From positions 1-64,000 of the IMG/VR virus record IMGVR_UViG_3300007351_000277: 64,000 nt of DNA; one strand, 5' to 3'. The number at the start of each line of letters is the position of its first letter. The stretch's first letter is position 1. This document shows positions 18,468 to 34,271 of the stretch, one piece after another. The DNA is from a virus. A program made the position numbers and the translations under genes. The notes under the pieces are model-generated. The model searched no databases and was not told where the DNA came from. It saw only the letters and a list, made by a program, of their open reading frames with translations.

Positions 18468-18580
18468 TACCGGCAGCAGAGACTAAACGAAGAGACACCG
18501 AAAGGTGAAGCGATAGTCCGATCTTATGGGAAATGAACCGTAAGAGCCAGGCAGAAATGGCCTGGACGCACCTTAACAAT

Positions 18581-19351: not shown

Positions 19352-19371
19352 ATCTTCCTCTATTTTCGCCA

Positions 19372-19400
19372 AGCATAGCAGAAAATGAGGAGTAAGTCAA
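19372..19400 (-). promoter_or_regulatory. sigma70-like promoter for HEG-2 (TTGACT-N17-TATGCT on the - strand)
   Basis: The reverse complement reads TTGACTtactcctcattttctgcTATGCT. The -35 again lies in the 3' strand of the loop-closing stem. Confidence 0.5.
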
Positions 19401-19426
19401 GTAGGTTGCGGTGAGGTAACAGATTG

Positions 19427-19948
19427 GATCAGGCTGGGGTAGATGTGGACACAGTGGTACGTGATGTACTAACTGCGGGCACGTCTATCCAGTTTGCCTC
19501 AACCGCTATCTCTCGTGGCCAGGTGGGGTCGGGCATGTTGTTCAACTCGGCAGAGATCAGGGAAGTTCTACGGACTATGCGTCGAAACAACGCAAATCCT
19601 GTGGAGGACGATAAGTATATCGCTTTCGTTCATCCAGACACCTGGTCGGACCTGTTGAGCGATACCGACTTCAAGAGCTTCGGGCAGCACGCACAGCCGC
19701 GTGATACCACGAACGTTCTGTCCCATGCTAACACAGTGGATTACCTTGGTATCCGGTTCGTCATGACGAGTCGGGCCACGATTCATGCGTCGCTGGGTCT
19801 GTCTGGCGCTGATGTTTACTCGACCGTGGTGGTGGGTGACCAGGCTTATGGTGTTTCCGAACTGGAGACTCAGAACCTGCGAATCTACTTCAAGCCACGG
19901 GGATCGGGTGGAACCGGTGACCCAATAGACCAGATCAGCACGCTGGGT
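19427..19948 (+). CDS. major capsid protein, exon 2 (174 codons)
   Basis: DQAGVDVDTVVRDVLTAGTSIQFAS...YIAFVHPDTWSDLLSD...GIRFVMTSRA...VYSTVVVGDQAYGVSEL...KPRGSGGTGDPIDQISTLG. There is no plausible start or RBS of its own. It continues exon 1 in phase 0. Confidence 0.85.
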
Positions 19949-20196
19949 AAAGTGATAGTAGTAATACTTGTAGCCCAGCTAAAACCTGTCAAATTCAGGG
20001 AAAGTCCCTATAGGGGGATAATCCTGAGCCAAGGCCAGCTTTATGGCTGGCAAGGTGCAACGACTAGACGGCAGGGACTCGGTTTACTGAACTGAGTCAA
20101 GGTATAGTCTGAACTCACGAGTAATCGTGAGAGGTGGCAGAAATGGCCACCCGCCTATTCAGGTGGATGCCTGTTAGGTCCATAAGTAACAGAACG
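19949..20196 (+). mobile_element. group I intron 2 (248 nt, no ORF)
   Basis: P1: exon GCTGGGT (19942-19948) pairs with guide GCCCAGC (19973-19979). Core strings are GTCAAATTCAGGGAAAGTCCC (19988-), GAGCCAAGG, GACTAGACGGCA (20062-20073) and AAGGTATAGTC. These closely resemble my recollection of the Azoarcus/Anabaena tRNA group I introns. It ends GTAACAGAACG. Confidence 0.85.
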
Positions 20197-20283
20197 TACA
20201 AGTGTGCATTTGCTGCACGTATCCTCAACGACAACTTCATGTTGCGTGTTGAGCACGTGACCACAGCAAAGCAGGCGGCATAA
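20197..20283 (+). CDS. major capsid protein, exon 3 (28 codons plus stop)
   Basis: Hand translation gives YKCAFAARILNDNFMLRVEHVTTAKQAA*. There is no start codon. It joins exon 2 in phase 0 after the omega-G at 20196. The spliced product is 318 aa. Confidence 0.7.
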   Translation, partial: YKCAFAARILNDNFMLRVEHVTTAKQAA

Positions 20284-20292
20284 GCGATTAGT

Positions 20293-20316
20293 AGGGGTCG
20301 GGGTGACTCGACCCCT
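20293..20316 (+). terminator. 8-bp GC-rich hairpin after the capsid stop (AGGGGTCG / CGACCCCT)
   Basis: Read directly. The T-run is weak or absent, so function is uncertain. Confidence 0.35.
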
Positions 20317-20344
20317 TAACAAAACAGGAAAGGGACATACTCAT

Positions 20345-20887
20345 ATGCCCAGAGTGAGCAAGGATGATAATGTCGTACAGTCTGTGATAGAAATGCAGGC
20401 TGTACCAGTTGCTGCTGATGCAGTACAGTCTGCAGAAGAGACGCAGGCTGCGCCAGTTGATGCTGACAAAGTGACTATGTTGCTAGCTAGACTAGCAGAC
20501 ATGGAAGCAAAGCTGGTAGCGCTTACAGCAGCAATCCCCCCTACCCCTCAGAACATTGGTGAAGCGCCCCCCCAAAGCAAGGGGACCAAGTGGAGTACCA
20601 ACGCCGGGGAAGTGGTGCACGGTAACAAAGTACCATTCACTCACCATGATCTGGTAGAGCGGACCGGTGAGGTCAGTTGGTACAACTGGACGCGGTTCGA
20701 TCACTGTATCGTGATGGGTGTGCCCTATCGGGTTCCTGTCAACACCTTCGTGACTACGCCAGGGATCGTCAAAGCGCATCTTGAGGAGACCGAGCACGCG
20801 CAACGTCGGCCTGATTTTGTAGAACGGACGGGGGGCCATGTAGCGACTGGTGCCTTGGAAGGTCCGCCACCGCAGCGACCAGCCTAA
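20345..20887 (+). CDS. hypothetical structural-module protein
   Basis: Track ORF is 20303..20887. I moved the start to ATG 20345 (MPRVSKDD) after AGGAAAGGGA, because GTG 20303 lies in the hairpin loop. Confidence 0.55.
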   Translation: MPRVSKDDNVVQSVIEMQAVPVAADAVQSAEETQAAPVDADKVTMLLARLADMEAKLVALTAAIPPTPQNIGEAPPQSKGTKWSTNAGEVVHGNKVPFTHHDLVERTGEVSWYNWTRFDHCIVMGVPYRVPVNTFVTTPGIVKAHLEETEHAQRRPDFVERTGGHVATGALEGPPPQRPA

Positions 20888-20908: not shown

Positions 20909-23266
20909 ATGCCCAAGTTGGGCTTGACCATGATTGCACGCGGCGCGGAGAAAACGCTAGGCGCGTGTCTGGACTCTATCAAGGACTATGTTGATCCCAT
21001 CGTAATCGTGCTGGCTGGCAAGCCCACTGACAACACCGAGACGATAGCCTACCAGTACACCGACCACGTTTTCTGGTACGATGAAGAACTACTGCCCGAC
21101 GGGGGCATCAGTAACTTCGCTGCTGCCCGTAATGTTTCCCTCAAAAAGTTAGCTGAACTCACTGGCCCGGATTCCTGGTTCATGTGGGTTGATGCTGATG
21201 ATGAGGTGGTAAACGCTGAGAACATCCCCGGCATCATTCAGGAAGCAATCGACAATGGTGCCGAGGGTATCTGGCTACCCTACCACTATGCGTTTACCGA
21301 CCGTGGTCAATGTACCACCTTCTTCACCCGTGAGCGAATCATGTACGACCCGACCCGTTATCGGTGGCTGGGGCGTGTTCATGAAGTTATCGCCCCCAAT
21401 AGGCCCATCTCGTGGGGCGAGGCCAGGGAAGTAGCGATTCGTCACAGTGGTCACCAGTATGTAAGTCGGTCGGATCGTAATCTTGCGCTACTGCACATGA
21501 TGCTGGAAGAAGAACCTGGCAACGAACGAACACTGTTCTATCTTGGGCATCAACACTTTGCCAACGGTGAATGGGCAGAGGCTGTGCAGTGGTACGAAGG
21601 GCATGTGAGGGTGGCCAACAACGAGCTTGAGAAGTGGCAGTCTTATATCTACATGGCTAAGGCGCTACGTAAGCTCGAACGTTATGACGATGCCCTCGCT
21701 GCCAACGCAGCAGCACTGGTATTGGCCCCCAGCTTCAAGGATTCCTACTTCGACTTGGCGGAAACTTATGCGTTCAAAGAGGATTTCGAGGCTTGTTTGC
21801 TAATGGCCGAGCTGGGCAGAAAGCGAGAGTCCCCGCCCCCGATATTGTTCCTCAATCCCCTCGATCAGATGGGCTACAACGCTGGTGTAATGGAAGAGGT
21901 AGCACTTTTTCATACGGGCAAACTGGATGAAGCGTTAGCCAAAGTGCGTGAGCTGCTTCGGATAAACCCTGCCCCGGCCCTCATGCAAAAAGAGGCCACC
22001 TATATGGACTTCGTGGAAACACGGGATAAAGCAGAAGCGTGGCTAACGATATTGGACGGTCAGGACCCCGATAGGGTGGTTGATCTATCCAAAGCAATAC
22101 CGAAAAGGCTATTCAATATCCCGGAGATACGCAACTGTGTGCATGGTGCCAGGGCCCTGTTACGTGAGGACCAGGCATCCGAGAAGCGAGTGGCGTTTTA
22201 CTGTGGCGAGGCGATGGAAGCCTGGTCTCCACCGAGTATCAACGAAGGTGGCATCGGCGGGTCCGAGACTGCCTGTATCGAGATAGCCAGGCGTTTCGCT
22301 GCTGACGGTTGGCAGGTAGACGTGTTCAACAATCCTGGTCGGTACGAAGGTGAGCATGACGGTGTGTGCTACTGGCATCACAGTCGGTTCAAACCCCAAG
22401 TACCGTATGACCTGTTGGTGTCTTGGCGTCAGTTGGCTGCGCTGGCCAACATGAACATAAAGGCCAAGCGGATGTTCTTTTGGGCACACGACCTGAACTA
22501 CGGGCCCCTCATGACGCCCAAGATCGCTGACCGATTCGACCGCGTGCTGGGGGTAAGCGAATACCATGCTGACTACCTTAAGCTGGTGTACGACTTCCTT
22601 CCTGCTGAGAAGGTAAACTTTGTGCCTAACGGGATCGACCTTGAGCGCTTTGCTGATCCGGGTGTAGAGCGCAAGCGTACTAAGGTGGTATGGCTGAGTA
22701 GTCCTGACCGGGGACTTGATGTACTACTTTCCCTGTGGCCCAACGTTATCCAGTATTACCCTGATGCTGAACTGCACATCTTCTACGGGTTCAAAAACAT
22801 CGAAAAGCTAGCGCGCGCCAACCACAAGTACCAGCAGTGGGTCGATACCATGATGCGCCACATGGACAAGCCTGGCGTTACCTATCATGGTCGGGTCGGG
22901 CAGGACGTGCTGGCACGTGAACTTTGGGAATCCAGCATCTGGGCTTACCCGTCCGCGTTCCTCGAAACGTCGTGCATTTCGGCAATGGAAGCGATGGCCG
23001 CGGGCGTAACGGTGTTGGCGTCCAACATTGGGGCGCTGTCCTACACGGTGGGCAGCATATGGAATCCCGATAATCCTGGCGCTGGGTACCTACTGCCTGG
23101 GCACTCACGTTCCGAGTGGTACATGAACAAGTTTCTGGGGGTTCTGCTGGCACTATTGGCTGACGACAACATATGGCGAGCAGGACATGAAGCAAGCCTC
23201 AAAAGGGCACCGATGTTTAGCTGGGACAAGAGTTACGAGAAATGGAAGCAACTACTGTCGGCCTAA
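20909..23266 (+). CDS. tripartite glycosyltransferase: GT2-like N domain, TPR repeats, GT4 (GT-B) C domain
   Basis: Start ATG 20909 after GCAGGGGGA. The N-terminal part (LGLTMIARGAEKTLGACLDSI...VDADDE) has a GT-A pattern. The middle has TPR-like repeats (LFYLGHQHFANGEWAEAVQWYE, YMAKALRKLERYDDALAANAAAL). The C-terminal part (SIWAYPSAFLETSCISAMEAMAAGVTVLAS) is EX7E-like. Confidence 0.85.
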   Translation: MPKLGLTMIARGAEKTLGACLDSIKDYVDPIVIVLAGKPTDNTETIAYQYTDHVFWYDEELLPDGGISNFAAARNVSLKKLAELTGPDSWFMWVDADDEVVNAENIPGIIQEAIDNGAEGIWLPYHYAFTDRGQCTTFFTRERIMYDPTRYRWLGRVHEVIAPNRPISWGEAREVAIRHSGHQYVSRSDRNLALLHMMLEEEPGNERTLFYLGHQHFANGEWAEAVQWYEGHVRVANNELEKWQSYIYMAKALRKLERYDDALAANAAALVLAPSFKDSYFDLAETYAFKEDFEACLLMAELGRKRESPPPILFLNPLDQMGYNAGVMEEVALFHTGKLDEALAKVRELLRINPAPALMQKEATYMDFVETRDKAEAWLTILDGQDPDRVVDLSKAIPKRLFNIPEIRNCVHGARALLREDQASEKRVAFYCGEAMEAWSPPSINEGGIGGSETACIEIARRFAADGWQVDVFNNPGRYEGEHDGVCYWHHSRFKPQVPYDLLVSWRQLAALANMNIKAKRMFFWAHDLNYGPLMTPKIADRFDRVLGVSEYHADYLKLVYDFLPAEKVNFVPNGIDLERFADPGVERKRTKVVWLSSPDRGLDVLLSLWPNVIQYYPDAELHIFYGFKNIEKLARANHKYQQWVDTMMRHMDKPGVTYHGRVGQDVLARELWESSIWAYPSAFLETSCISAMEAMAAGVTVLASNIGALSYTVGSIWNPDNPGAGYLLPGHSRSEWYMNKFLGVLLALLADDNIWRAGHEASLKRAPMFSWDKSYEKWKQLLSA

Positions 23267-23841
23267 GATTATCGCTTGGCTGTGGTGCAGCATTGTTGCC
23301 ACCACCGTGGCGCAACCTGGACTACGCTAAGCAGTCGATACCGAAAGGATACCACTTCCAGCTTTACGACCTGCGTGATGGGTTACCGTACCCGGACAAC
23401 TCGGTGGACCTGATTCACTGTGCCCACGCTCTCGACCACGTTAGCTTTTATGATGCAGTGGCCTTACTAAAAGAGTGCAAGCGTGTCATGTGTCCTATGT
23501 CAGTAGGACGGTTTATCATGATGGACTTCGATGCCATCTGGAACGCCTATCAGGACCGGCAGGTCAACACCTTTGCCAAGTGGCAGCCCCCCGAGTGGGG
23601 GCGTCTGCGCAGCAATGCCTTGAAGCTATCGCTGTTCCTGATGGGTAGCATGTCAGGACAACGAGAGTATACCGGGCACTGGTGGGTAACGGACTTTGGT
23701 GGATTTCGGGAGATGGCGAGTATGGCGGGGTTTTCGGATGTAAAGCGGATGGAGTATGGCAAGAGTCAGAGTCGCGTCATAGAGATAGAGGTGCCCGAAG
23801 CCTACCCGGACCACAGCTTGTATGTTGAGGTAGTAAGGTGA
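23242..23841 (+). CDS. class I SAM-dependent methyltransferase
   Basis: LSLGCGAALLP motif I-like, then DNSVDLIHCAHALDHV and LKECKRVMCP. Confidence 0.7.
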   Translation: MEATTVGLRLSLGCGAALLPPPWRNLDYAKQSIPKGYHFQLYDLRDGLPYPDNSVDLIHCAHALDHVSFYDAVALLKECKRVMCPMSVGRFIMMDFDAIWNAYQDRQVNTFAKWQPPEWGRLRSNALKLSLFLMGSMSGQREYTGHWWVTDFGGFREMASMAGFSDVKRMEYGKSQSRVIEIEVPEAYPDHSLYVEVVR

Positions 23842-24554
23842 GAATCAATGATTATCACAAGGTTGTTGTTATTCCAGCACACAATGAGGCCAACAACATC
23901 GCTAATCTGGTGGCGCAGGCAAAAGAATACGGCAAAGTAATCGTGGTGGACGATGGCTCGACGGACAGGACAGCAGTAGAGGCTGCACTGGCTGGTGCTA
24001 TTGTGCTATCCAACCCACCTGGTTCCCAGTATGGCGACGGTTTCATGCGAGGCGTAAGTGCCGCGCTGTCCTATGGCGCCAAGCAGATTGTGACGATGGA
24101 CGCTGGGGGTAGCCATGACCCCAACGACCTTTCTGTTTTGCTGCGCCACCTTGTACTGCCCTATATGGTTGTCATCGGTACCCGTGGCACAGAAGGGGCC
24201 AAGATCAGTCAGCCACTGCATCGTAGGCTACTGACCAAGGCAGCTACCTATGCGATGTATCGACTGACCGGGCAGACAATATACGACTACAGCAGCTTTC
24301 GTGCTTTCACCTGCAACTCAGCCAGAGTGGTACTATCGGTCGCCAAAGACCTACCGAAACGATGTCATGTGTTCAATCCAGCCTTGGCGATGGCCATGGC
24401 ACAGCAGCCACTACTGCGCTTTATCCACGTCCCCATCAACTTCAGGTCCACCAACTCTAGCCTGAAGCCTATGGACATAATACAGGCAGCATGGCAGTTG
24501 GCTGTGATGCTGAAAGCAGAGAACATCGAAAGGACACTCAGGTGCTTACGGTAA
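23838..24554 (+). CDS. family 2 glycosyltransferase (dolichyl/polyprenyl-phosphate sugar synthase-like)
   Basis: VVIPAHNEANNIANLV...VIVVDDGSTDRT...TMDAGGSHDP. Confidence 0.85.
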   Translation: MRINDYHKVVVIPAHNEANNIANLVAQAKEYGKVIVVDDGSTDRTAVEAALAGAIVLSNPPGSQYGDGFMRGVSAALSYGAKQIVTMDAGGSHDPNDLSVLLRHLVLPYMVVIGTRGTEGAKISQPLHRRLLTKAATYAMYRLTGQTIYDYSSFRAFTCNSARVVLSVAKDLPKRCHVFNPALAMAMAQQPLLRFIHVPINFRSTNSSLKPMDIIQAAWQLAVMLKAENIERTLRCLR

Positions 24555-25273
24555 CAGCCTTCATCCCCTACTGCAACTACATGCACGACACTAGCAACCT
24601 GCAAGCGTGCCTGAAGACCGTGGCTGCGCAAACGCAGCCCTTCCACCAGATCATCCTATCGGACGACTCACACGCGGACGATAGACCAGAAGTACAGGAA
24701 CTATGTAGGCAATATGGGATAGAGTACCTTGAGTTTCCGTTTGTCAACTATGCGCCTGCCTTCGGTCGCAAGTTCAACAGGTCTTTTGCGCAGACCACCG
24801 GGGATGCTATCTGCCTATTGTGCAGCAATTGGGTGTTGGGCAGTAATTGGGTAGAGGAAATGGCACGGTGGCTTGATGAGTTAGGGCCGGGGCACGTCGT
24901 TGCGTCGGACAACGCACGGCACAAGATGCTTAACGCGCAAGGAATACCTTACGACTGGTTTGCTGGAAGCCCGGATCGCTTCAAAGCAAGCAATCACCAC
25001 CTGATAGATGAAGGCTTCCTGACCATACTTCATCGACAGGACTGGATACCCTTTCCTGAAGCTTATGACCCCCCAGAGGATGACCTGAGTGCGACCAAGG
25101 GTGCATGGCACGCAGTAATCGAATGGGGACGTGATCTGATGGGAAAACAGGGGGTACAGTTGTGGATACGGCGAGACCTGGAAGCTGAGCATCTGCCCAA
25201 GCGTGACCCGGTAGAGTGGAAAGAACAGTGCAAATGGTCCGATGGTATCTTGCAACAGAGGGGCGCAATGTAA
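24542..25273 (+). CDS. GT-A-like glycosyltransferase, paralog 1
   Basis: Track ORF is 24491..25273. In-frame GTG 24542 follows AAAGGA. Motifs: TAFIPYCN...QIILSDDSHADD. Clear paralog of the next gene. Confidence 0.55.
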   Translation: MLTVTAFIPYCNYMHDTSNLQACLKTVAAQTQPFHQIILSDDSHADDRPEVQELCRQYGIEYLEFPFVNYAPAFGRKFNRSFAQTTGDAICLLCSNWVLGSNWVEEMARWLDELGPGHVVASDNARHKMLNAQGIPYDWFAGSPDRFKASNHHLIDEGFLTILHRQDWIPFPEAYDPPEDDLSATKGAWHAVIEWGRDLMGKQGVQLWIRRDLEAEHLPKRDPVEWKEQCKWSDGILQQRGAM

Positions 25274-26016
25274 TGGAAGGTCCTACCGTATCCTGCTTTC
25301 TAGAGTTTGCGAACCCTTATCGGGATACCACGTTGTTTCGAGAAACCTTGCAGTCGCTGAGAAACCAAACATATCCCCTGCATGAAATCTTCGTCTGCGA
25401 TGATGCACCACCGGAAGACAGAGGTGAGATAGCAGCGTTGTGTAGCGAGTTCAACGCTATCCACGTGGAATACCCCTTCCGTAACTGGGGGTTAGCCAAC
25501 GGTGGCATGTACAACGACTGCTACCGAGCAAGTACGGGCGAAGTCTTACTGGTACTTTGCAGCGGGTTTATCCTTGGTGCTCGGTGGCTGGAAGAAATGC
25601 TGAAGACACTTATGGCCAAGGGCCCAGGCAATCTGGTGGGTACTGATTTTAACTGGATCAACCGAGAGTTTCCACACCCGTTTGATAGCCAGCCTGATCC
25701 CTACCAGACATTACGTAATGACAACTACGACCATGCCAAAACCATCTTGTTTCGTGAGGATTGGATTGATTACGATATCGAGTTTGATGCGGTTGGGTTT
25801 GATGGCCTGACTGGTAATCAGCACGGACAAGTCTGGTGGGGGAAGCAGCATCAGCATGCTGGACATAGCCTCTGGTTGCGTCGCAACATGGATATGCGAC
25901 ATCCACGCAGGCCACAACTAGAGGAATTTAGTAGACATGTCATGGATCGCTTCTTTTGGTCGCATGAGATTTTGGTCGAGAAGGAAGGCTTACCACCATC
26001 ACTAGACGTAGCGTGA
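25273..26016 (+). CDS. GT-A-like glycosyltransferase, paralog 2
   Basis: Track ORF is 25216..26016. ATG 25273 overlaps the preceding stop (TAATG). Motifs: VSCFLEFANP...EIFVCDDAPPEDR. It aligns along its whole length with 24542..25273. Confidence 0.55.
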   Translation: MEGPTVSCFLEFANPYRDTTLFRETLQSLRNQTYPLHEIFVCDDAPPEDRGEIAALCSEFNAIHVEYPFRNWGLANGGMYNDCYRASTGEVLLVLCSGFILGARWLEEMLKTLMAKGPGNLVGTDFNWINREFPHPFDSQPDPYQTLRNDNYDHAKTILFREDWIDYDIEFDAVGFDGLTGNQHGQVWWGKQHQHAGHSLWLRRNMDMRHPRRPQLEEFSRHVMDRFFWSHEILVEKEGLPPSLDVA

Positions 26017-27104
26017 TCCCACTTTTGAAACCGTCTTGTTCTGAACAGGAAATAGCAAACGTCACGGACGTGTTGCGTTCCGGTTGGTGGGGTATGGGAC
26101 CGAAGTGCGAGGAATTCGAGCAGAAACTGGCTGAACGGTACGAACGTAAGCATTGCGTGACGGTCAACAGCGCCACAGCAGCGTTGCACCTGGCACTGAA
26201 GGCTCACGGTATAGGACCAGGCGATGAGGTTATCCTGCCTGCCCTCACCTTTGTGAGCACGGCATTGGCGGTGGAATACTGTGGGGCCAAGCCGGTGTTT
26301 GCAGACGTGAGTCCCAAGACCCTTTGTATTGACTGGGATAGTGTTGGCGAGTGTTGCAGTGTTCGCACAGCAGCGGTGATCCCGGTTGATTATGCTGGGT
26401 ATCCAGCGATGGAAGGTGAGCCAGATAGCGTGCTGATTGTTCAGGACGCTGCACATTCCTGTGGTGGCATTGGGTATGGCGACTTGATCTGCCTTTCGTT
26501 TCATCCCGTGAAGCCATTGGCCACTGGCGATGGTGGTGCCATTCTAACTGATAACGACGAAGAAGCAGAGCGACTGCGATCCCTACGGTGGTGTGGAATT
26601 GATAAGAGCACGTGGGAAAGAGCCAGGCAGAAATATGGGTGGGATTATTCCATCCAAGCGATTGGCTACAAGTATCACTGGAATGACCTTCAGGCTGCGA
26701 TTGGCCTTGCACAGTTGGAACGCCTTGATGAGATGACCGAAAGGCGACGCCAGATCGCTACGTGCTACACAGCAGCGTTCAAGCCACTGGAAGGCCGAGG
26801 ATTGATTCAGTGTCCTGCGGTGCATGATCGCCATACCTGGCACCTGTACGTAATCAGGGTAGATGCTGATGCTCGTAATCAGCTTATCGACCACTTGACG
26901 AATCAGGGGATATCGGCAGGCGTGCACTACAAGCCACTGACGCATTATCGTATGTGGCAGGGGCAGCGAGGCAACTTACCGGTGACCGAACGGGAATGGC
27001 AGAGGATGGTGTCGTTGCCCATATACCCGGACATGACAGAGGAAGAGCAACTAAGGGTAATCAATGCAGTTAGAGAGTTCTTTGAGCAACGTCAATACGC
27101 CTGA
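26013..27104 (+). CDS. DegT/DnrJ/EryC1-family PLP-dependent sugar aminotransferase
   Basis: IPLLKPSCSEQEIANVTDVLRSGWWGMGPKCEEFE...; PLP-lysine context SFHPVKPLATGDGG. Confidence 0.9.
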   Translation: MIPLLKPSCSEQEIANVTDVLRSGWWGMGPKCEEFEQKLAERYERKHCVTVNSATAALHLALKAHGIGPGDEVILPALTFVSTALAVEYCGAKPVFADVSPKTLCIDWDSVGECCSVRTAAVIPVDYAGYPAMEGEPDSVLIVQDAAHSCGGIGYGDLICLSFHPVKPLATGDGGAILTDNDEEAERLRSLRWCGIDKSTWERARQKYGWDYSIQAIGYKYHWNDLQAAIGLAQLERLDEMTERRRQIATCYTAAFKPLEGRGLIQCPAVHDRHTWHLYVIRVDADARNQLIDHLTNQGISAGVHYKPLTHYRMWQGQRGNLPVTEREWQRMVSLPIYPDMTEEEQLRVINAVREFFEQRQYA

Positions 27105-27633
27105 ATTTTGGGATACGCAGTACAGCACAACCGAGCCATCTAGCTACATTGGCTGGACGTCACTGGTGTTACGTGTAGCCAAGAGATGCACGCAGGGTCC
27201 TCTCGTGGTGGATTTTGGCTGTGGCCACAGTGCATTCCATTACTCACTACACGAAGCCATGCCATGCACCTTAATCGGGATCGACTTCTCGGAAACAGTG
27301 CAACAGTATAACCGGGGTATCTTCCCTGATGATTTGTGGCTGGTGCGTGATGTTTGCGATACCAGGCTGGCCAGCGCTATAGCGGACATGGTGGTGAGCC
27401 ATGCGGTTGCAGAGCACCTTAACGATCCAGAGCATCTGGTTGCTGAGATGTGGCGAGTGCTGAGACCTGGGGGGATGTTCTTGTTGGGGATACCCCTTCA
27501 GTCCGTTCGTCCTGACCACGTTAAGCTATACGAGTGGAAGGATGTGCTGGCATTGGTTCAATCATATGGTGGTCTGCTAGAAACAGTACAGATATCCCGC
27601 AGGGCCTATGTCATGCTGAGGAAGGGGGATTAG
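27064..27633 (+). CDS. class I SAM-dependent methyltransferase
   Basis: VVDFGCGHS motif I, then DMVVSHAVAEHL and LRPGGMFLLG. Confidence 0.75.
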   Translation: MQLESSLSNVNTPEFWDTQYSTTEPSSYIGWTSLVLRVAKRCTQGPLVVDFGCGHSAFHYSLHEAMPCTLIGIDFSETVQQYNRGIFPDDLWLVRDVCDTRLASAIADMVVSHAVAEHLNDPEHLVAEMWRVLRPGGMFLLGIPLQSVRPDHVKLYEWKDVLALVQSYGGLLETVQISRRAYVMLRKGD

Positions 27634-27634
27634 G

Positions 27635-28657
27635 TTGGCAACGCCACTGTACGACTCACTGCATGGTCTGTTTGCCGCCTCAGACCAAAAGTGTCACGAG
27701 ATGGTGCAGGGGCTTACCCCTCGGATTCTACGGATAGGGTCACACTATAACCATCCGTATCGTGTCTTGCCCCTACCATTCCCTGGCGAAGTGCATACGC
27801 TAGACATTGTGCCTGAGACATTTGTAGAGCACCACCAGCTTTACCCAAGCGATATTCTGGTAGAGGGCGACATTCGTGATATCCCGTATCCTGCTCACCA
27901 CTTCGACTTTGTATTCGAGCTATCCACCATCGACCATATTCATCAGAAGTGGGTACCGTTGGCGCTGGACAACATATGTCGGGTTTTGAAGCCAGCAGGG
28001 AAGTCGGTCATCGCCACATGGATTGGGCAGCAAGGATTCCATGGACCTGAATCACCGGCTGCAATTGGCGGGCAATACCACTTTGACTACTCGGTGTTCA
28101 CCGGGGAACTGAAGCAACGATTCAGCGTGGACTCGGAAGAGTTGCTGTACACGGTGGATGGTAACGACTTCTACCTGTTTACTGCCCATAAAGAGAAGCG
28201 TGACGGGGTGGTGATCTATCCTGTAGCAGCTATTGATATGGACTGGATGCGTGAGCTACGCAACCGATTCCGTCATTCTTTCAAGTACAACCAGGAGATA
28301 GGTGAACAGCAGCAGAAAGAGTGGTACCAGAATTACTGGCAACAACCACGTGACGATTATACGGTGTTTGCTGTATGGGCCGGGGATGATCGTATTGGCC
28401 TCACTTCCTACCGACGGTGGGACAGTGAGAGATACGAGCTAGGCAACAACATCATCGATACCCCGTTTCAAGGGCAGGGGTACTTTTCGCAAATCTATCG
28501 AGCAGTGAAGGGCCGGGTGGGGAATGCACCTATGGTAGCAACGGTGCTGAAGGACAACACACACATGATAGACGTGTATCGGCACCTGGGGTTTCGTATG
28601 GCCCCTTATGACGTACCCAATATGGTGTTGATGGTTGAGAGAAAATATGTCAGTTGA
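27635..28657 (+). CDS. methyltransferase-like N domain fused to a GNAT-like acetyltransferase C domain
   Basis: N-terminal part: DIRDIPYPAHHFDFVFELSTIDHI...VLKPAGKSVIA. C-terminal part: FAVWAGDDRIGLTSY...FQGQGYFSQIY...VLKDNTHMIDVYRHLGF. Confidence 0.6.
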   Translation: MATPLYDSLHGLFAASDQKCHEMVQGLTPRILRIGSHYNHPYRVLPLPFPGEVHTLDIVPETFVEHHQLYPSDILVEGDIRDIPYPAHHFDFVFELSTIDHIHQKWVPLALDNICRVLKPAGKSVIATWIGQQGFHGPESPAAIGGQYHFDYSVFTGELKQRFSVDSEELLYTVDGNDFYLFTAHKEKRDGVVIYPVAAIDMDWMRELRNRFRHSFKYNQEIGEQQQKEWYQNYWQQPRDDYTVFAVWAGDDRIGLTSYRRWDSERYELGNNIIDTPFQGQGYFSQIYRAVKGRVGNAPMVATVLKDNTHMIDVYRHLGFRMAPYDVPNMVLMVERKYVS

Positions 28658-29969
28658 CTTGGCGTTAGTGTTCCCGCGCATGAAATATCCCAGTGGTGAC
28701 CCACCGCTGGGGGTGGCGTCTATTGCTGCTTTCGTACGTGAGCAGGGGTACAGAGTGGCGATTGTCGATGCTACATGGCACCCTTCAGAGCAATGGGTGC
28801 TGGATGAAATCGAACGACTGGACCCTGACTTCGTGGGTATCTATACCTCGACGCTGATGCTGAACGATGCTAAGTCAATTGGCAGCAAGATTAAGCTGCG
28901 TAGTGCCATCAGTGGTAGGAAACGCAAGGTAATGATCGGGGGGCCACACTTCTCGGCCATGCCAGATCATGGGGGCGACTTTTCCTACTGCGACGTGGTC
29001 ACGCGTGGTGAGGGCGAGTACACCGTTGTCAACATCATGCGTAGTTACTATGACTTTAACAATCCAGTGGACCTAGCCACATTGCCAGCACCTGCACTGG
29101 ACCTATTGGATATGGATCGCTACATGGATCGGTGGCACTACCTGGACAGCATACAGATGGGTATGCGTGGTACCAACCTGATGGCACACCGCGGTTGTCC
29201 GTTTTGCTGTACCTACTGCCAGCCAACCGTTAACAGGTTGTTTGGGAGCACAATACGTAGTCGAACACCACAACAGGTAGTGGATGAGATGGAAGAGCTA
29301 CACGACCGATATGGGATCGACGGCTTCTTCTTCCATGACGACACTCTGACGATTAAGCATGACTGGCTGGGTGAGTTTCTGAGGCTGCTGGGCCAGATGA
29401 GTTTCTATCCCCTGTGGGGCTGCAATTCGAGAGTCAACACCGTAGATGAGGATTTGTTGTGGGCGATGGTCGTGGGGGGCTGTAGGGCAATCCACTGGGG
29501 CATAGAGGCAGGCAGTCAACGTGTACTGGACGAAATCTATAACAAGGGGATCAAGATTGAGCAAGTACGCCAAACACTCGCGATGTCGCGCCGTTTCCGT
29601 ATCCACAATGGTGGCTTCTTCATCCTGGGGGCACCGGGGGAAACGAGGCAAGAAATGCAAATCACCGTGGACCTTGCGTGCAAACTGCCTTTGGACGAGG
29701 CGTCGTTTAGCATATGTGTCCCGTTGCCCGGTACGACGTTGTACGAGAGGATGGCGTCAGAGGGACGGGTTTTTTCCGGGGACCCTCTGGACTATGACTA
29801 TTACCAACGGCAACCATTCGAGCACGACGTACCGTTGGTGGAGATAAAGGCGCTACAGCGTAAGGCGCTCATACGTTTCTACGGGCAGCGCAAGGGCTAC
29901 CTGTTGCGCCACCTGACCAGTTGGCGTGGCGTTAAGCGACTAGCACAGAAAGTAGGAAGATTCCTATGA
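28647..29969 (+). CDS. B12-binding-domain radical SAM enzyme 1
   Basis: Track ORF is 28635..29969. N-terminal Rossmann/B12-like pattern LALVFP...PPLGVASIAAFVREQGYRVAIVDA. Cluster motif RGCPFCCTYC. GGFFILGAPGET. Confidence 0.9.
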   Translation: MSVDLALVFPRMKYPSGDPPLGVASIAAFVREQGYRVAIVDATWHPSEQWVLDEIERLDPDFVGIYTSTLMLNDAKSIGSKIKLRSAISGRKRKVMIGGPHFSAMPDHGGDFSYCDVVTRGEGEYTVVNIMRSYYDFNNPVDLATLPAPALDLLDMDRYMDRWHYLDSIQMGMRGTNLMAHRGCPFCCTYCQPTVNRLFGSTIRSRTPQQVVDEMEELHDRYGIDGFFFHDDTLTIKHDWLGEFLRLLGQMSFYPLWGCNSRVNTVDEDLLWAMVVGGCRAIHWGIEAGSQRVLDEIYNKGIKIEQVRQTLAMSRRFRIHNGGFFILGAPGETRQEMQITVDLACKLPLDEASFSICVPLPGTTLYERMASEGRVFSGDPLDYDYYQRQPFEHDVPLVEIKALQRKALIRFYGQRKGYLLRHLTSWRGVKRLAQKVGRFL

Positions 29970-30181
29970 CAGATGATACCAAGCGACCAAACACATGGGA
30001 TCGTTGCAAGTTACAGCCAGGGACACCGTTCAAGGTATATTCGCCACCGCCAGTAACGATTTATGGTGAAGATGGACTTGCTATCCTTTGCGACTTGGTA
30101 CGAGGGGCATGGGCGAGGGGTTGTGACTTCCAGATCGATGCAAACATTATTGTGTTCACGAGGAATAAGGTTGAACGGTAG
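29966..30181 (+). CDS. small hypothetical protein (71 aa) between rSAM genes
   Basis: ATG overlaps the preceding stop. No motif. It overlaps the maximal ORF of the next gene. Confidence 0.35.
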   Translation: MTDDTKRPNTWDRCKLQPGTPFKVYSPPPVTIYGEDGLAILCDLVRGAWARGCDFQIDANIIVFTRNKVER

Positions 30182-31553
30182 GCAGCAAATCCTGTTTGTC
30201 AACCCACCATCACCCGATCCGTCTGCTCTCGACCTGGGCCTAACGTATCTGGCGACCTATATCAATGAAACGACGGGCCACAGAGCACGTATTCTGGACC
30301 TGGTGTGGCACCGACGGGACTGGCGCCAGGCACTGGCCAATGAACTAAGTACGGTGCGACCGGATTGGGTGGGCATCAGTACCAACAAGCTGTACCTACC
30401 TTATGTCCGTGATATCACGAAGGAATGTCACCAGCAGGGATACGATGTGGTGATTGGTGGGCACCAGGCATCGGTGGACCCCACGGGTTCTCTGGCCTTT
30501 ACGGGTGCGGATGCCTGCTGTACGGGCGATGGCGAGACTTCCTTTGTCCCCATGTTGAATGGAAGCCAGGAACGCCAGGAACAGCGGGTATGGCGAGGTT
30601 CGTTCATACGCGATCTGGACTCACTACCGGTACCGGACTTCTCGCTGTGGAAGCATCTTGATCGGTACTACTACCTGCTGGGTAGCCAGTATATGATCGG
30701 TAGTCGGGGATGTCCTTATCGGTGTTCCTTCTGTGACGCCCACGAGATCGCGGGGAAGGTAGGTGGACGCTACTTTCGTATCATGGGACCCGATCGATAC
30801 GCTCATGTGCTAGCTGAACTAAAGGTCCAGCACAACGTACCGATGTTCCAGTTGTTTGACCCGGTGTTCACCATCGACCCACAGTGGGTACGGGACTTCG
30901 CCGCGTCCTACTCTGTATTGGCCAAGCGCACACCCTACTCGGTGTTTGCTCGCATAGACCAACTGGACGAGAAGCGTGTTATTGCGCTGGCGTCGTCAGG
31001 ATGCAAAGTAGTGCGTGTCGGTATCGAGGCGGGCAACGACTATATCCGTAACAGCGTTTACGGTAAACACCTGGGGAAAGACAAGATACGTAAGGTCGTC
31101 AGCCTTTGCAAGCGTTACCGATTGGCCATGACGGGCTACTTTATTTTGGGTGGACCCAGCGAGACATCATCGACGGTGGAAGAAACGATTGCGTTTGCCC
31201 GCGAGCTGAACATAGCCCGAACGGTATTTTTCGTCTACAAGGTACTGACTAACGAGGGGCGCTGCCAGATGCGTAACGCGGGGGCTAAACTCTATGAGGA
31301 ACGATCGGATAACATCACCTTCGGGGCAGTGGCAGACCTGCCCGGACTTCCTGCCTGGCGCACCGAGCTTTACCAGAAGCAGGCATATGCGCTGACGTTC
31401 AGTAATCGATTGGCAAGGCTTCTTCGTGCACAGGGGCCAGGGTACGCTTTTCGTTTTGTCCAGTATATGGCAAAGGGCATAATGTGGGGCATTTCGCCCA
31501 AATATCTAATCCCGTACTTCAACGTGTACGGTGGACCCAACTCTCGGATGTGA
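30171..31553 (+). CDS. B12-binding-domain radical SAM enzyme 2
   Basis: Track ORF is 30063..31553. In-frame TTG 30171 follows AGGAATAAGG, and ATG 30138 is an alternative. Motifs: ILFVNPPSP...LGLTYLATYI...ARILDL; cluster motif RGCPYRCSFC; GYFILGGPSET. Confidence 0.9.
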   Translation: MNGRQQILFVNPPSPDPSALDLGLTYLATYINETTGHRARILDLVWHRRDWRQALANELSTVRPDWVGISTNKLYLPYVRDITKECHQQGYDVVIGGHQASVDPTGSLAFTGADACCTGDGETSFVPMLNGSQERQEQRVWRGSFIRDLDSLPVPDFSLWKHLDRYYYLLGSQYMIGSRGCPYRCSFCDAHEIAGKVGGRYFRIMGPDRYAHVLAELKVQHNVPMFQLFDPVFTIDPQWVRDFAASYSVLAKRTPYSVFARIDQLDEKRVIALASSGCKVVRVGIEAGNDYIRNSVYGKHLGKDKIRKVVSLCKRYRLAMTGYFILGGPSETSSTVEETIAFARELNIARTVFFVYKVLTNEGRCQMRNAGAKLYEERSDNITFGAVADLPGLPAWRTELYQKQAYALTFSNRLARLLRAQGPGYAFRFVQYMAKGIMWGISPKYLIPYFNVYGGPNSRM

Positions 31554-31563
31554 GGATTAGTAG

Positions 31564-32769
31564 TTGAAGGTAGCGTTGATTCACCCCGGTAGCCCGTTCT
31601 TGATAGACTCGGCAGTTCATCCCCCCCTTGGCCTGTGGTACCTGGGGGCAGTGCTCAAGCAGCACTGCCATGAGGTAGTCTACGTGGACCTGGGGATGAA
31701 CGATACCTGGCCCAACGATGCTGACCTGTATGGCATAACGGGCACCACGCCACAATTGGACTCGATGGAACGGACTATCAACTTCCTGACCATGCAGGGC
31801 AAGGTAGTGATGGGGGGGGGGCCTCACGCTACCGTTTGCCCCAACGAGCTACTGAACATGGGGGCGTCGTTCGTGGTACAGGGGGAAGGCGAATATATCC
31901 TACGTGACATGGCTCACAACCCTTTTGCCAACTATCCGAACCAAGTTTTCAGGGCGCCTCGTATCGAGGATTTGGACAGTCTACCCTTCCCTGATCGAGA
32001 ACAGGTGTCCCGATACACCTATTACATACCCGACCGGCATGGGAACAAACATGGGGCCACGACCATGATTACGAGTCGTGGGTGCAGCCACCACTGCTCG
32101 TTTTGTTCCCATGCTGTGTGGGGGAAGTTCTATCGGGAACGCTCAGCAGAGAACGTCCTGGGGGAAGTGCGTCACATAAAGGACTTGGGCTACGATGCCG
32201 TGCATTTCTTTGACGATTCCATGTGCATTAACACCAAGCGATTGCTGGCCATCTGCGATGGTATCAAGCAGTTGGGCATGATATGGCGCTGTTTCGTTCG
32301 GGCTGACCAGGTAACACCGAGGATACTCAAGGCGATGGCCAACGCAGGCTGTGTGGAAATTGGTATCGGGATAGAGTCGGGTAGCCAGAAGGTGCTAGAT
32401 GCTATTCATAAGGGCGAGACGGTAGAGATGCAGGCCATCGCTATCGAGTGGGCACGATATGCGGGAATACGCAGCAAGGCATTTGTGATAATCGGCCTTC
32501 CGGGTGAGGACTGGCAGTCGGTGGACGACACCATAGCGTTTCTGAAGCAAACACGACCGGACGAACTGGACGTAACGACCCTTCAGATCATGCCAGGAAG
32601 TCCTATCTATGGCGACCCTACCACGTTTGGCATCACCCGTAACCAGATGGCTACCTGGTACAAGGGCAGACGTGGCGAGTACGTGGTCAACCACCGCACC
32701 GAGGCATTGGACGCCGATGACCTACTGGTCGCCAGGGACTATATTGACGCACGCTTCCGTAAAAGGTGA
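31564..32769 (+). CDS. B12-binding-domain radical SAM enzyme 3
   Basis: VALIHPGSP...PPLGLWYLGAVLKQHCHEVVYVDL; cluster motif RGCSHHCSFC; AFVIIGLPGED. Confidence 0.9.
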   Translation: MKVALIHPGSPFLIDSAVHPPLGLWYLGAVLKQHCHEVVYVDLGMNDTWPNDADLYGITGTTPQLDSMERTINFLTMQGKVVMGGGPHATVCPNELLNMGASFVVQGEGEYILRDMAHNPFANYPNQVFRAPRIEDLDSLPFPDREQVSRYTYYIPDRHGNKHGATTMITSRGCSHHCSFCSHAVWGKFYRERSAENVLGEVRHIKDLGYDAVHFFDDSMCINTKRLLAICDGIKQLGMIWRCFVRADQVTPRILKAMANAGCVEIGIGIESGSQKVLDAIHKGETVEMQAIAIEWARYAGIRSKAFVIIGLPGEDWQSVDDTIAFLKQTRPDELDVTTLQIMPGSPIYGDPTTFGITRNQMATWYKGRRGEYVVNHRTEALDADDLLVARDYIDARFRKR

Positions 32770-32807: not shown

Positions 32808-33179
32808 GTGCCTAAAGTTCATGGGTATGAGTCGATTCGCCGGGACCATCTAGGCAAAATAGACATCGAGATGGTCCTGGCAGCGAAACTCAACAAGGAC
32901 AACACCGTAAGTGAGTTGGTGACCTGTACACCTGCAGATACGGACGTGGCCGCTGCTGCGCCTATGCCAGAGGGGACCAAGTATGTTTCGGTCTATTGTG
33001 CGTCCGCTTATGTGGTGGCGATGGGGGAACCAACATCCACGACGATAGGGATCGGTCTGGGTGCAGGTCAGGCTACTACATTTCCAGTAGATCGTACTGG
33101 TGTAGCTGCACACGATACCCCCCATGTTCAGAGTCCCACCGATGGTGCGGTGGTACGGATTACCTATCATAAGGGATGA
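32808..33179 (+). CDS. hypothetical protein
   Basis: 123-aa ORF with a GTG start after CAGGGGG. Confidence 0.5.
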   Translation: MPKVHGYESIRRDHLGKIDIEMVLAAKLNKDNTVSELVTCTPADTDVAAAAPMPEGTKYVSVYCASAYVVAMGEPTSTTIGIGLGAGQATTFPVDRTGVAAHDTPHVQSPTDGAVVRITYHKG

Positions 33180-33195
33180 GAAGGGGGTGAACTAA

Positions 33196-33636
33196 ATGGC
33201 AGTTACAGGAAAACTCTACGGACAGTTCTTAAAGCTGGCACTTAACAAAGAGATTGATTGGGATAGTGACCTGATCAAGGTGCAACTACACACCAGCAGT
33301 TATACCCCGGACCAGGACGCTCACGACTATGCCGACGATGCTACCAACGAGGTAGCATCGGGTAACGGCTATGTGCCCGGTGGTGCCACACTTGGCAATA
33401 AGTCTATCACCTATACAGCAGACGGTAACATCATCAAACTGGACGCTGACGATGTAGAATGGCCATCAAGTACCATCACAGCGCGTACGGCTGTAGTGGT
33501 GGACGCTGCAACGGGCGGAGCAACGACCAACCCACTCATTTGCTATCAGCAAAGCGATAGCGATATCGCATCTTCCAACGGAACCTTCACCGTGGAATGG
33601 AACGCATCCGGTATCGTTTCCATAACGGTATCGTAA
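33196..33636 (+). CDS. hypothetical structural protein
   Basis: 146 aa, RBS AAGGGGGTG. The beta-rich composition (GNGYVPGGATLGNKSITYTADGNIIKLDADDVEW) is reminiscent of virion surface proteins. Confidence 0.55.
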   Translation: MAVTGKLYGQFLKLALNKEIDWDSDLIKVQLHTSSYTPDQDAHDYADDATNEVASGNGYVPGGATLGNKSITYTADGNIIKLDADDVEWPSSTITARTAVVVDAATGGATTNPLICYQQSDSDIASSNGTFTVEWNASGIVSITVS

Positions 33637-33650
33637 GGACGGGAAGAAAA

Positions 33651-34016
33651 ATGAGTATCCTGACAAATATCAAAAACTGGTTCATTGAGGCCCCTGTGCC
33701 TACCCCCATCGTGGCACCATCGATTGCCCCGGACATAGCAACAGCCACGGGAAAGTTAAGCGACGCCACGATAGCTACCATTAAGCTGTTTAAGCTACTC
33801 GAAGTCGAGGGCGCTCTTCGCATCATCACTGCCAAGCCTGATCCCAAGGGTGCCATGTATCCCGATACTGATAGTCGGCATTTCGTCATCCATAAGGTGG
33901 TAGCTATCGATGGACCAGACCAATTCGGTAACCTACATGCGGTTTCTGCAGAGGGGGATTGGTGCGATGGTAAGCCTACCGCGTTGCTGCGTAGGTTACA
34001 GGAATGGGCACGATAA
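33651..34016 (+). CDS. hypothetical protein
   Basis: Track ORF is 33597..34016. I moved the start to ATG 33651 after GGACGGGAAG. Confidence 0.5.
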   Translation: MSILTNIKNWFIEAPVPTPIVAPSIAPDIATATGKLSDATIATIKLFKLLEVEGALRIITAKPDPKGAMYPDTDSRHFVIHKVVAIDGPDQFGNLHAVSAEGDWCDGKPTALLRRLQEWAR

Positions 34017-34018
34017 CA

Positions 34019-34042
34019 CCATTGTGCTGGCCAGCACAATGG
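34019..34042. repeat. perfect 24-nt palindrome CCATTGTGCTGG/CCAGCACAATGG
   Basis: Read directly. It begins 3 nt after the stop at 34016 and has no T-run. It could be a hairpin or a protein-binding site. Confidence 0.4.
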
Positions 34043-34061
34043 GAATAAAGGACATAATACG

Positions 34062-34271
34062 GTGGCACACCCTATATGCAAACGCATCACGATGTTGATG
34101 CAACACCATGATGGTAGCCCTATAGAGTACCGGAATGGTTGGTACATTCGCAACTGGACGGTATTTGGACGATGGCTGGCAACGCAACGTCGTCCAAATT
34201 GCAACGACGGATATATCATGTGTGACGTTCTGCGAGCGTTAGTGAAAAGAGGTAAGGTTGACTGCCATTGA
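34062..34271 (+). CDS. hypothetical protein
   Basis: 69-aa ORF with no motif. Weak call. Confidence 0.3.
   Translation: MAHPICKRITMLMQHHDGSPIEYRNGWYIRNWTVFGRWLATQRRPNCNDGYIMCDVLRALVKRGKVDCH

Follow-up and report, generated by a model that had tools for sequence, protein, structure and literature searches.

To our knowledge, virion glycosylation by phage-encoded enzymes has been documented only in a few mycobacteriophages. In giant viruses, capsid or fibril glycosylation involves the multi-domain A064R of chlorovirus PBCV-1 and the viosamine/bacillosamine cluster of mimivirus, and we know of no radical S-adenosylmethionine (SAM) enzymes described in these clusters. The mycobacteriophage work is reportedly that of Freeman et al. 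in Cell Host Microbe (2023), on phages said to be of the Che8, Corndog and Myrna type. Mycobacteriophages are reported to glycosylate their capsid and tail tube through glycosyltransferases (GTs) encoded in the structural operon (Freeman 2023, as given in PMC12619734; PMC11256854). Like the gtrABC genes of serotype conversion, sugar clusters of jumbo phages and cyanophages have been read as modifying O-antigen or capsule (PMC7824862), and the hypervariable region of pelagimyophages holds sugar genes within the structural region, together with radical SAM cassettes (PMC7029224). Here, we analysed a stretch of 64,000 nt from a virus (positions 1-64,000 of IMGVR_UViG_3300007351_000277; "the window" hereafter means this whole stretch) and describe a cassette of sugar- and protein-tailoring genes that lies between its capsid gene and its head-to-tail adaptor gene.

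Like gtrABC, jumbo phage, cyanophage and pelagimyophage clusters, this cassette is a variable set of GT and sugar-nucleotide genes in a phage genome. Unlike gtrABC-type clusters, it has no GtrA-type flippase, no membrane GT and no transmembrane helix in its Dpm-like enzyme of GT family 2 (GT2); its core is of the protein-GT type, and its place beside the capsid gene is conserved.

We suggest, with moderate confidence, that the cassette is expressed late and glycosylates virion proteins in the cytoplasm with a tailored amino sugar. A virion target is favoured because the cassette is packed between the capsid and adaptor genes with no excess of promoters or terminators, because the capsid adjacency recurs in three unrelated capsid families, because the core GT resembles GmaR, SunS and ThuS while its TPR and GT-B parts resemble OGT and SPY, and because a membrane segment, flippase, GT-C or polymerase is missing from the island. 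An earlier note on this DNA, made from the letters alone, had proposed that the phage attaches a tailored sugar to its own virion proteins. This proposal gains from the phage setting, the capsid adjacency, the protein-GT fold and the lack of a membrane protein, and loses from a capsid protein without a Ser/Thr-rich tail.

Gene content and conservation of the cassette

The window is a tailed-phage genome, with a large terminase, a portal, a 2749-aa LPD38 polyvalent protein, a major capsid protein (phrog_1357) and a SU10-type adaptor, and farther downstream a DnaN clamp, DNA methyltransferases and a helicase-like ATPase. The island at 20909-32769 sits in the late structural block, with terminase, portal, giant LPD38 protein and capsid gene upstream and the SU10-like adaptor downstream, which makes it a phage feature, as the earlier note had supposed. 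The same note described a run of co-oriented, mostly overlapping genes with named domains, and all of these open reading frames (ORFs) and domain calls were reproduced with Pfam and NCBIfam. The gene count changed from 13 to 12, which is also the sum of the list given at the time. Adjacent genes overlap by 4-64 nt or leave a gap of at most 21 nt. Since every enzyme gene has a significant Pfam match, chance ORFs are ruled out. The cassette genes, the capsid gene, the small gene that follows it, the two Thr-rich tracts and the adaptor gene discussed below are all on the + strand.

The core of the cassette consists of genes that have syntenic orthologs in the nearest relative, a 71-kb phage contig (L001). 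The first is a three-domain GT (20909-23266), with a GT2 domain at residues 13-157, a TPR region at about 197-293 and a GT family 4 (GT4) domain at 455-719, all recognised by Pfam; its closest relative other than the identical copy mentioned below is the L001 protein, at 58% identity. It is followed by a SAM-dependent methyltransferase, MT1 (23242-23841; Pfam Methyltransf_11), with 58% identity to the L001 ortholog at the same position. The others are the third of three class-B-type radical SAM enzymes (radical SAM 3, 31564-32769; Pfam; 62% identity) and a stand-alone GT4 (36244-37389; 59% identity), which the earlier note had listed as a further GT4 and which Pfam confirmed. The gene order in L001 is giant protein, intact capsid, 118-aa gene, GT2-TPR-GT4, methyltransferase, three small ORFs, one B12-type radical SAM enzyme, DUF5662, GT4, two ORFs, adaptor and 613-aa protein. 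Orthologs shared with the window (capsid, GT2-TPR-GT4, MT1, radical SAM 3, GT4, adaptor and 613-aa protein) are 58-62% identical.

Compared with L001, two segments are specific to this phage. The larger one, 23838-31553, opens with a GT2 (23838-24554) that has a Dpm1/PpgS/AglJ-like catalytic domain without a membrane anchor. Its GT2 domain stood (Pfam PF00535, 1e-15), and its earlier assignment as PpgS-like proved weak: the best NCBIfam matches were PpgS (70 bits vs. a cutoff of 370), AglJ and Dpm-like families, all far below cutoff, ArnC gave 23 bits vs. 529, and the PDB match, to DPMS (5mlz), was also weak. No transmembrane segment was found in this protein and no ortholog in L001. Next come two paralogous GT-A-like (GT2-like) genes (24491-25273 and 25216-26016; PF00535 at 2e-7 and 2e-8), which are 31% identical (E=1e-37) and belong to no NCBIfam family. 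A DegT-family nucleotide-sugar aminotransferase dependent on pyridoxal phosphate (PLP) follows at 26013-27104, with a PF01041 match of 345 bits over residues 4-360 of 360 and the PLP-lysine motif SFHPVK. Its equivalog matches stay below cutoff (PseC 293 bits, ArnB 283 bits), and its best PDB match is ArnB (1mdo, 233 bits).

The same segment continues with a second SAM-dependent methyltransferase, MT2 (27064-27633; Methyltransf_11, 3.6e-17), and a methyltransferase-GNAT fusion (27635-28657; Methyltransf_11 at residues 43-125, Acetyltransf_3/1 at 216-321). Then come radical SAM enzyme 1 (28647-29969; class-B-type, Pfam B12-binding and radical SAM domains, motif CPFCCTYC), a 71-aa ORF (29966-30181) with AGGAAG, a Shine-Dalgarno-like sequence, before its ATG and no Pfam match, and radical SAM enzyme 2 (30171-31553; class-B-type by Pfam, motif CPYRCSFC). 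For radical SAM gene 2, the start is most likely TTG at 30171 instead of ATG at 30063, because the predicted N-terminus aligns with enzymes 1 and 3 only from about residue 37 of the long ORF; therefore the 71-aa ORF would overlap this gene by 11 nt only. For the fusion and radical SAM 1, no close relative was found in JGI metagenome contigs. The second specific segment, 32808-36230, holds five ORFs (123, 146, 121, 102 and 563 aa) without L001 orthologs at this place.

None of the island enzymes has a membrane segment, as no hydrophobic 19-residue window exceeded 1.6 (Kyte-Doolittle) in any of them, and the island contains no flippase-like, GT-C-like, polymerase or initiating phosphoglycosyl transferase ORF. 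GC content is flat across it (0.52-0.55). A scan for promoters and terminators found no excess of sigma-70-like promoters or of terminators at the island borders, with counts within about 1.4 standard deviations of the shuffled expectation.

At the level of spread, the three-domain GT has about 30 full-length homologs in protein databases, including an identical copy on a 90-kb JGI contig. In more distant temperate relatives of 43 kb, the same slot is filled by GT2-TPR-GT4, GT4 and SAM methyltransferases, among them one of the Methyltransf_13/14 type, a type known from sugar C-methyltransferases. A complete 42.6-kb podovirus in GenBank (MW202524) has the order capsid, hypothetical gene, three-domain GT, two GTs, methyltransferase, GT2, methyltransferase and then tail genes. 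No near relative of the window was present among 50,697 deposited phage records, and megablast of the island against them gave no match. With tblastn at E<=1e-8, the three-domain GT matched 20 of these records, none of them an actinobacteriophage, and the three-domain protein was in no cultured phage.

We searched IMG/VR and GTDB with an alignment of 26 homologs. Scans of IMG/VR with a single protein, either capsid exon 2 or the GT, gave no match, so an alignment-based query was needed; this picked up 191 relatives from IMG/VR and 121 from GTDB genomes. A full-length three-domain GT is encoded in 88 loci, the window included, whose neighbours we clustered and whose representatives we annotated. 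A recognisable major capsid gene lies upstream of the GT in 35 of the 88, mostly one to three genes away, the median distance between the capsid stop and the GT start being 607 nt. A gene placed at random among about 60 would be expected to lie no more than three genes from the capsid gene in about 5% of cases. The capsids of these 35 loci belong to mutually unrelated families: phrog_1357, the window type (12), SU10_MCP PF17236 (19), and phrog_1005 after a prohead protease (4). The GT has a collagen-like tail fibre as its upstream neighbour in 10 further loci, some of them on contigs of 180-240 kb, and a baseplate wedge in one locus. A GT4 follows the three-domain GT in 28 loci. The same gene order was found in prophages on a 2.2-Mb contig assigned to Dehalococcoidia (L005, CBDFLI010000002.1) and on a 9.5-Mb chromosome assigned to Acidobacteriota (L006, OY969418.1), and another relative, L004, is temperate, with integrase and repressor. 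In other phages, comparable variable sugar genes (SDR, DegT, methyltransferases) fill the same slot. The earlier note had named a host O-antigen fragment without phage conservation as the finding that would speak against it; the flat GC, the syntenic core in L001 and the relatives in many phages exclude such a fragment.

Two putative anti-defence sponges were observed near glycosylation genes: a protein with RyR and Acb2/Tad1-hairpin regions between GT4 and methyltransferase (L004:4506-5081), and a Tad2-like ORF (L236:19721-20002). A 53-kb phage contig (L237, JGI 3300041085) shows the same enzyme set in another genomic context; it carries DegT, a sulfotransferase, a hexapeptide acyltransferase, SDR, GT2s, a sugar nucleotidyltransferase and two B12-type radical SAM genes.

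The core glycosyltransferase and the radical SAM enzymes

For the three-domain GT, the WxDADD motif of the GT-A domain and the Glu residues of the GT-B (GT4) domain were invariant in the alignment of 26 homologs. When the family profile was compared with all PDB sequences, the best match of the GT-A domain was GmaR (1.9e-21), followed by SunS/ThuS (5e-19 to 5e-15), the TPR region matched OGT, and the GT-B domain matched GlgM and MshA. The AlphaFold (AF2) model (predicted local distance difference test, pLDDT, 91.8) has helices at 188-421, and its top Foldseek matches were ThuS and SunS (TMt up to 0.70), then PimA, MshA, OGT and SPY (SPINDLY); against 7msp, TMt was 0.70 with a root-mean-square deviation of 2.9 A over 298 columns. 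The curated SunS model TIGR04195 was not reached (35.9 bits vs. a cutoff of 350). GmaR is the Listeria flagellin O-GlcNAc transferase, and SunS and ThuS are glycocin S-glycosyltransferases. Judged by profile and predicted structure, the N-terminal half of the enzyme belongs to the protein/peptide-directed branch of GT2. The earlier suggestion that a TPR-linked GT acts on protein finds real support in these best relatives (GmaR, SunS and ThuS).

For the radical SAM enzymes, all three presented PF04055 and PF02310 above gathering scores, with CxxxCxxC motifs at residues 184, 181 and 174 in enzymes 1-3, respectively, and were mutually 26-28% identical. None of them reached a curated family cutoff in NCBIfam. 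The best solved-structure match of all three was AprD4, and enzyme 1 also matched MgmA. The AlphaFold model of radical SAM 3 (pLDDT 92.5) was nearest by Foldseek to AprD4 with paromamine (TMq 0.84), and then to MgmA, TsrM, CysS, OxsB and TokK. Thus, domains and motifs supported the earlier identification as B12-binding radical SAM enzymes; a methylase role is no more than possible, the nearest structure being the non-methylating AprD4. AprD4 is a 1,2-diol dehydratase acting on paromamine (PDB 6fd2) and is not known to use cobalamin. In radical SAM 3, GG (G85 G86) and E108 G109 are invariant in 25 homologs, and the nearest structure is nonetheless AprD4; enzymes 1 and 2 have similar GG/GE motifs. 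Motifs of this kind have been described as cobalamin-binding (PMC9204698), and GenK and GenD1 are known to C-methylate gentamicin sugars (PMC4039129, PMC4340712). By analogy, the chemistry in this phage could be either C-methylation, as in GenK/GenD1, or deoxygenation, as in AprD4.

The family of radical SAM 3 is large: of the 8000 candidates scored, 4816 matched below 1e-20. We found neither a characterised member nor a curated family for it. In the two cellular contigs that we examined, homologs of 44-45% identity lie within glycan clusters that hold TylF and FkbM methyltransferases, SDR, an RmlC-like isomerase, a GHMP kinase, a nucleotidyltransferase, several GTs and TPR proteins. Of the 68 IMG/VR loci that carry a radical SAM 3 homolog, at least 44 have a GT, SDR, DegT or nucleotidyltransferase within 10 kb, and the order GT2-TPR-GT4, (SDR dehydratase), GT4, (GT4), radical SAM occurs in at least 10 other viral loci. 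Because its neighbours are sugar genes and its nearest structure is the sugar-acting AprD4, we assign this family, on sequence grounds, to sugar pathways.

In other phage contigs, inteins with LAGLIDADG domains interrupt homologs of radical SAM 3 and of the three-domain GT (L007:12203-14824 and L090:6284-8860; proteins P0037 and P0040). Phage inteins mostly reside in important genes, and their presence in these homologs suggests that the genes matter to the phage. A siphovirus-like lineage (L167-L172 and L174) also carries a radical SAM 3 homolog, 44-56% identical (e.g., L167:10001-11203).

Candidate acceptors and competing explanations

Beyond the gene content, domains, operon-like packing, conservation and position of the core, protein-GT-like structure and sugar context of the radical SAM enzymes described above, we infer which sugar is made and in what order, by what radical SAM chemistry, on which acceptor and to what benefit, as follows. 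A nucleotide-activated keto-sugar would be drawn from host metabolism, since the window has no 4,6-dehydratase. The ArnB/PseC-like DegT enzyme would aminate it, the GNAT domain would N-acylate it, and the three SAM methyltransferases would N- or O-methylate it. The three class-B-type radical SAM enzymes may edit unactivated carbons, by C-methylation (GenK/GenD1) or deoxygenation (AprD4). With the TPR domain holding the protein acceptor, the GT-A domain would place the first sugar on one of its Ser, Thr or Cys residues. The glycan would then be extended by the GT-B domain, by the stand-alone GT4 and by the three additional GT2 enzymes. Acceptors could be the capsid protein, the small capsid-adjacent protein, the five cassette ORFs, or the Thr-rich giant and 417-aa proteins. 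The benefit may be shielding, stability or host recognition.

Among the candidate acceptors, the small gene that separates the GT from the capsid gene (p194, 20345-20887) is 47% identical to the 118-aa gene at the same position in L001, and the three-domain GT starts 21 nt after it. Its product is a candidate capsid accessory protein or acceptor; it had no Pfam or PHROG match, and a homolog search in protein databases returned only itself. Two tracts pointed out by the earlier note are real and are candidate O-glycosylation sites: a Thr-rich tract in the 2749-aa LPD38 protein (13955-14070; 19 Ser/Thr per 30 residues) and a Thr/Ser/Pro/Gly-rich tract in a 417-aa protein (14993-15105; 13 Ser/Thr per 30 residues). 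The giant protein of L001 likewise has a Ser/Thr-rich tract near its C-terminus. The giant LPD38 ORF of the window (6200-14449) lies between the portal region and the capsid gene, with a poly-Thr linker near its C-terminus, and its versions in relatives are as short as about 1400 aa, in a copy truncated by the end of the locus, and as long as 3466 aa. The five ORFs at 32808-36230 are probably structural, and are candidate acceptors or fibres; 33196-33636 matches phrog_644, and 34539-36230 has a weak Disaggr_repeat match.

Several observations weigh against virion glycosylation. The capsid C-terminus (...VEHVTTAKQAA) has no Ser/Thr-rich tail of the kind that serves as acceptor on the capsid or tail-tube subunit in mycobacteriophages; it is colinear with that of L001 and has no extension (...RVEHVTTAKQAA). 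Only the giant and 417-aa proteins have Ser/Thr-rich tracts. If the giant LPD38 and 417-aa proteins are internal or ejected, glycans on their Thr tracts would be hidden. A conserved acceptor gene directly before the GT was considered and dropped, as the small genes of three lineages are unrelated by profile-profile comparison. A dehydratase for nucleoside diphosphate sugars, the source of the keto-sugar, was searched for in the window and none was found. In the siphovirus-like lineage, L167 and L169-L171 have the radical SAM 3 homolog between the capsid and tail-tube genes, where both are recognised, and no recognisable glycosyltransferase appears in L167, L168, L171 and L172 within the stretch read; GT-like matches occur in L169 and L174, and an SDR in L170. 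In L237, the sugar and radical SAM genes are interleaved with replication genes (DnaB, SSB, RNase H, DNA methylase). Finally, 23838-24554 resembles polyprenyl-phosphate sugar synthases and DegT resembles ArnB, both of which belong to routes that modify the envelope.

The usual reading of phage sugar clusters is host-envelope remodelling (PMC7824862, PMC7029224), which is the main rival here. The sugar would go onto lipopolysaccharide, capsule, teichoic acid or S-layer, maybe via polyprenyl-phosphate and host transferases; we consider this rather unlikely here, together with the gain it would bring, which would be to block superinfection or keep progeny off cell debris. The similarity of 23838-24554 to PpgS, AglJ, ArnC and DPMS fits such a route, as does the closeness of DegT to ArnB of the lipid A Ara4N pathway, but the polyprenyl-synthase similarity lies far below the family cutoffs and the island has no membrane-spanning protein, flippase, GT-C, polymerase or initiating phosphoglycosyl transferase. 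Temperate relatives (L004 with its integrase and repressor, the prophages L005 and L006) and the sugar genes among replication genes in L237 would also suit it. In the window, however, the genes are packed in the late structural block, not by an integrase or behind a promoter of their own; the core enzyme is like protein/peptide-directed GTs and not like polysaccharide synthases, and the capsid adjacency is seen again in unrelated lineages. The protein-directed relatives themselves allow for a target outside the virion: SunS/ThuS modify secreted bacteriocin peptides, with the SunS entry named 'SPbeta prophage-derived', and GmaR modifies flagellin. The acceptor would then be a host protein (flagellin, pilin, receptor or defence protein), or a phage glycopeptide like sublancin, with the 71-aa ORF as its possible precursor; the RiPP-type radical SAM families ApyD and rSAM_ocin_1 are among the weak NCBIfam matches, and this small ORF between the radical SAM genes contains Cys. 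We find this quite improbable. Across 164 related loci, phmmer found homologs of the GT and radical SAM genes and none of the 71-aa ORF; the annotated genes include no leader peptidase, ABC exporter, immunity gene or thiol-disulfide oxidoreductase; the SunS equivalog gave 36 bits vs. a cutoff of 350; in cells, the radical SAM family lies beside sugar enzymes and not beside peptide precursors; and the recurrent adjacency to capsid genes would stay unexplained. A glycocin locus was rejected, with no precursor, exporter or immunity gene and a 71-aa ORF that is not conserved.

Phage GTs that build diverse DNA glycans are known (Pyle 2024, cited in PMC12619734), the window carries DNA methyltransferases, and the sugar genes of L237 are mixed with replication genes. 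It is still highly improbable that the cassette places sugars on modified DNA bases against restriction, as there is no hydroxymethylase or thymidylate-synthase-like gene among the scanned ORFs, the TPR and SunS-like architecture points to a protein or peptide acceptor, and the cassette lies in the structural block instead of a nucleotide-metabolism block. That the genes are accidental cargo, a recently captured fragment of host polysaccharide genes with no phage role, is scarcely credible and for the core largely refuted. The 7.7-kb segment 23838-31553 is indeed absent from L001, and two of its genes, those noted above, lack a close relative in the metagenome collection; against this, GC is uniform, no reading frame is broken, the genes overlap and run in one direction, many phage lineages conserve the flanking core, and similar variable sugar genes occupy the same slot elsewhere.

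Returning to virion glycosylation, we put forward a wider and more tentative possibility: that a large, unstudied group of uncultivated phages coats its own particles through a capsid-adjacent GT-A/TPR/GT-B enzyme, with the present phage having taken this furthest, to an aminated, acylated and methylated glycan edited in its carbon skeleton by three cobalamin-type radical SAM enzymes. If so, the group might span SU10-like podophages, prophages in contigs assigned to Dehalococcoidia and Acidobacteriota, and jumbo phages.

The borders of the cassette are set by the capsid and adaptor genes. A capsid gene upstream of the island had been reported correctly, with the correction that it is in three pieces (17527-17883, 19427-19948 and about 20194-20283; phrog_1357 major head protein), colinear with the intact 320-aa capsid protein of L001 at 65%, 74% and 68% identity (tblastn). 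The second gap contains a full-length group I intron (19881-20131; Rfam RF00028, 86 bits). The first gap (about 17884-19426, GC about 0.49) gave no Rfam intron match and holds LAGLIDADG homing-endonuclease ORFs on the opposite strand (17942-18448 and 18581-19372); the distant relative L003 also has a capsid gene interrupted close to this position, and the interruption contains a LAGLIDADG-like ORF. Downstream, the SU10-adaptor-like head-to-tail adaptor (37463-38311; weak Pfam PF24175 match) is 59% identical to that of L001, and another lineage has a strong SU10_adaptor match at the same position.

Other features were observed in the window. A sub-threshold PreQ1 riboswitch-like match between the last capsid exon and the small gene (20288-20333; 23.9 bits vs. 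gathering 39, E=0.074 in a 3-kb search) is probably due to chance. A phage Ro60/TROVE and vWA protein is encoded at 46651-48276 (Pfam, 1.8e-16 and 1.2e-14), with no Y-RNA or other Rfam family at gathering threshold across the window, and a polynucleotide-kinase-like gene lies at 53491-54177. An archaeal host, hinted at by the Disaggr_repeat and AglJ matches, was rejected: the DnaN clamp of the window is of bacterial type, Shine-Dalgarno-like GGAGG-type sequences precede several island genes, and prophages on bacterial contigs carry distant relatives of this GT family.

Significance and comparison with described systems

Phage sugar clusters are routinely filed as host O-antigen modification (PMC7824862, PMC7029224). 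The fold and the capsid-adjacent position of the GT-A/TPR/GT-B protein, which is present in at least 88 loci, argue that many environmental phages may glycosylate their particles. If so, this would bear on phage-host recognition, evasion of defence or immunity, particle stability and the design of phage therapeutics. Radical SAM sugar chemistry would gain a role in virus assembly, the particle chemistry of the phage would depend on host cobalamin and anoxia, and this would be, as far as our searches show, the first radical-SAM-dependent virion glycan. Enzymologists should find the radical SAM 3 family a worthwhile target in itself.

Our literature search found no account of a GT-A/TPR/GT-B enzyme beside phage capsid genes, and none that links cobalamin-type radical SAM enzymes with phage glycans. 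The cassette is best described as putative phage virion glycosylation with an unusually rich tailoring set; its core is common in uncultured phages, and we found no study of it.

Compared with SunS, ThuS and GmaR, the core enzyme shares a DxD-bearing GT-A domain and, after it, a TPR-like helical domain for holding the protein or peptide substrate. It differs from them by its low identity (about 16-18%) and its extra C-terminal GT-B (GT4) domain. Unlike their loci, the annotated genes of the window include no bacteriocin precursor, exporter, immunity or flagellar genes.

The radical SAM enzymes are similar to GenK, GenD1 and AprD4 in their N-terminal Rossmann (B12-type) domain, their radical SAM barrel with CxxxCxxC and their setting in GT-rich sugar clusters. 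Identity is about 20%, and they are located in a phage structural module instead of an antibiotic gene cluster.

In the chlorovirus and mimivirus systems, a self-encoded aminotransferase, acetyltransferase and methyltransferase and multi-domain GTs decorate the virus's own particle independently of the host, as the cassette would do here. Those are eukaryotic viruses with unrelated capsids.

Finally, as in mycobacteriophages, phage GTs –with methyltransferases in some– are encoded in the structural operon beside the capsid gene, would work in the cytoplasm and are proposed to decorate or shield the particle. Unlike in mycobacteriophages, the phage is podovirus-like with a SU10-type adaptor, its capsid has no Ser/Thr-rich C-terminal tail, and its enzymes show no detectable homology to theirs (tblastn of the three-domain GT). 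To what mycobacteriophages have, the cassette described here adds an aminotransferase, a GNAT domain, three extra GT2 enzymes and three B12-type radical SAM enzymes.

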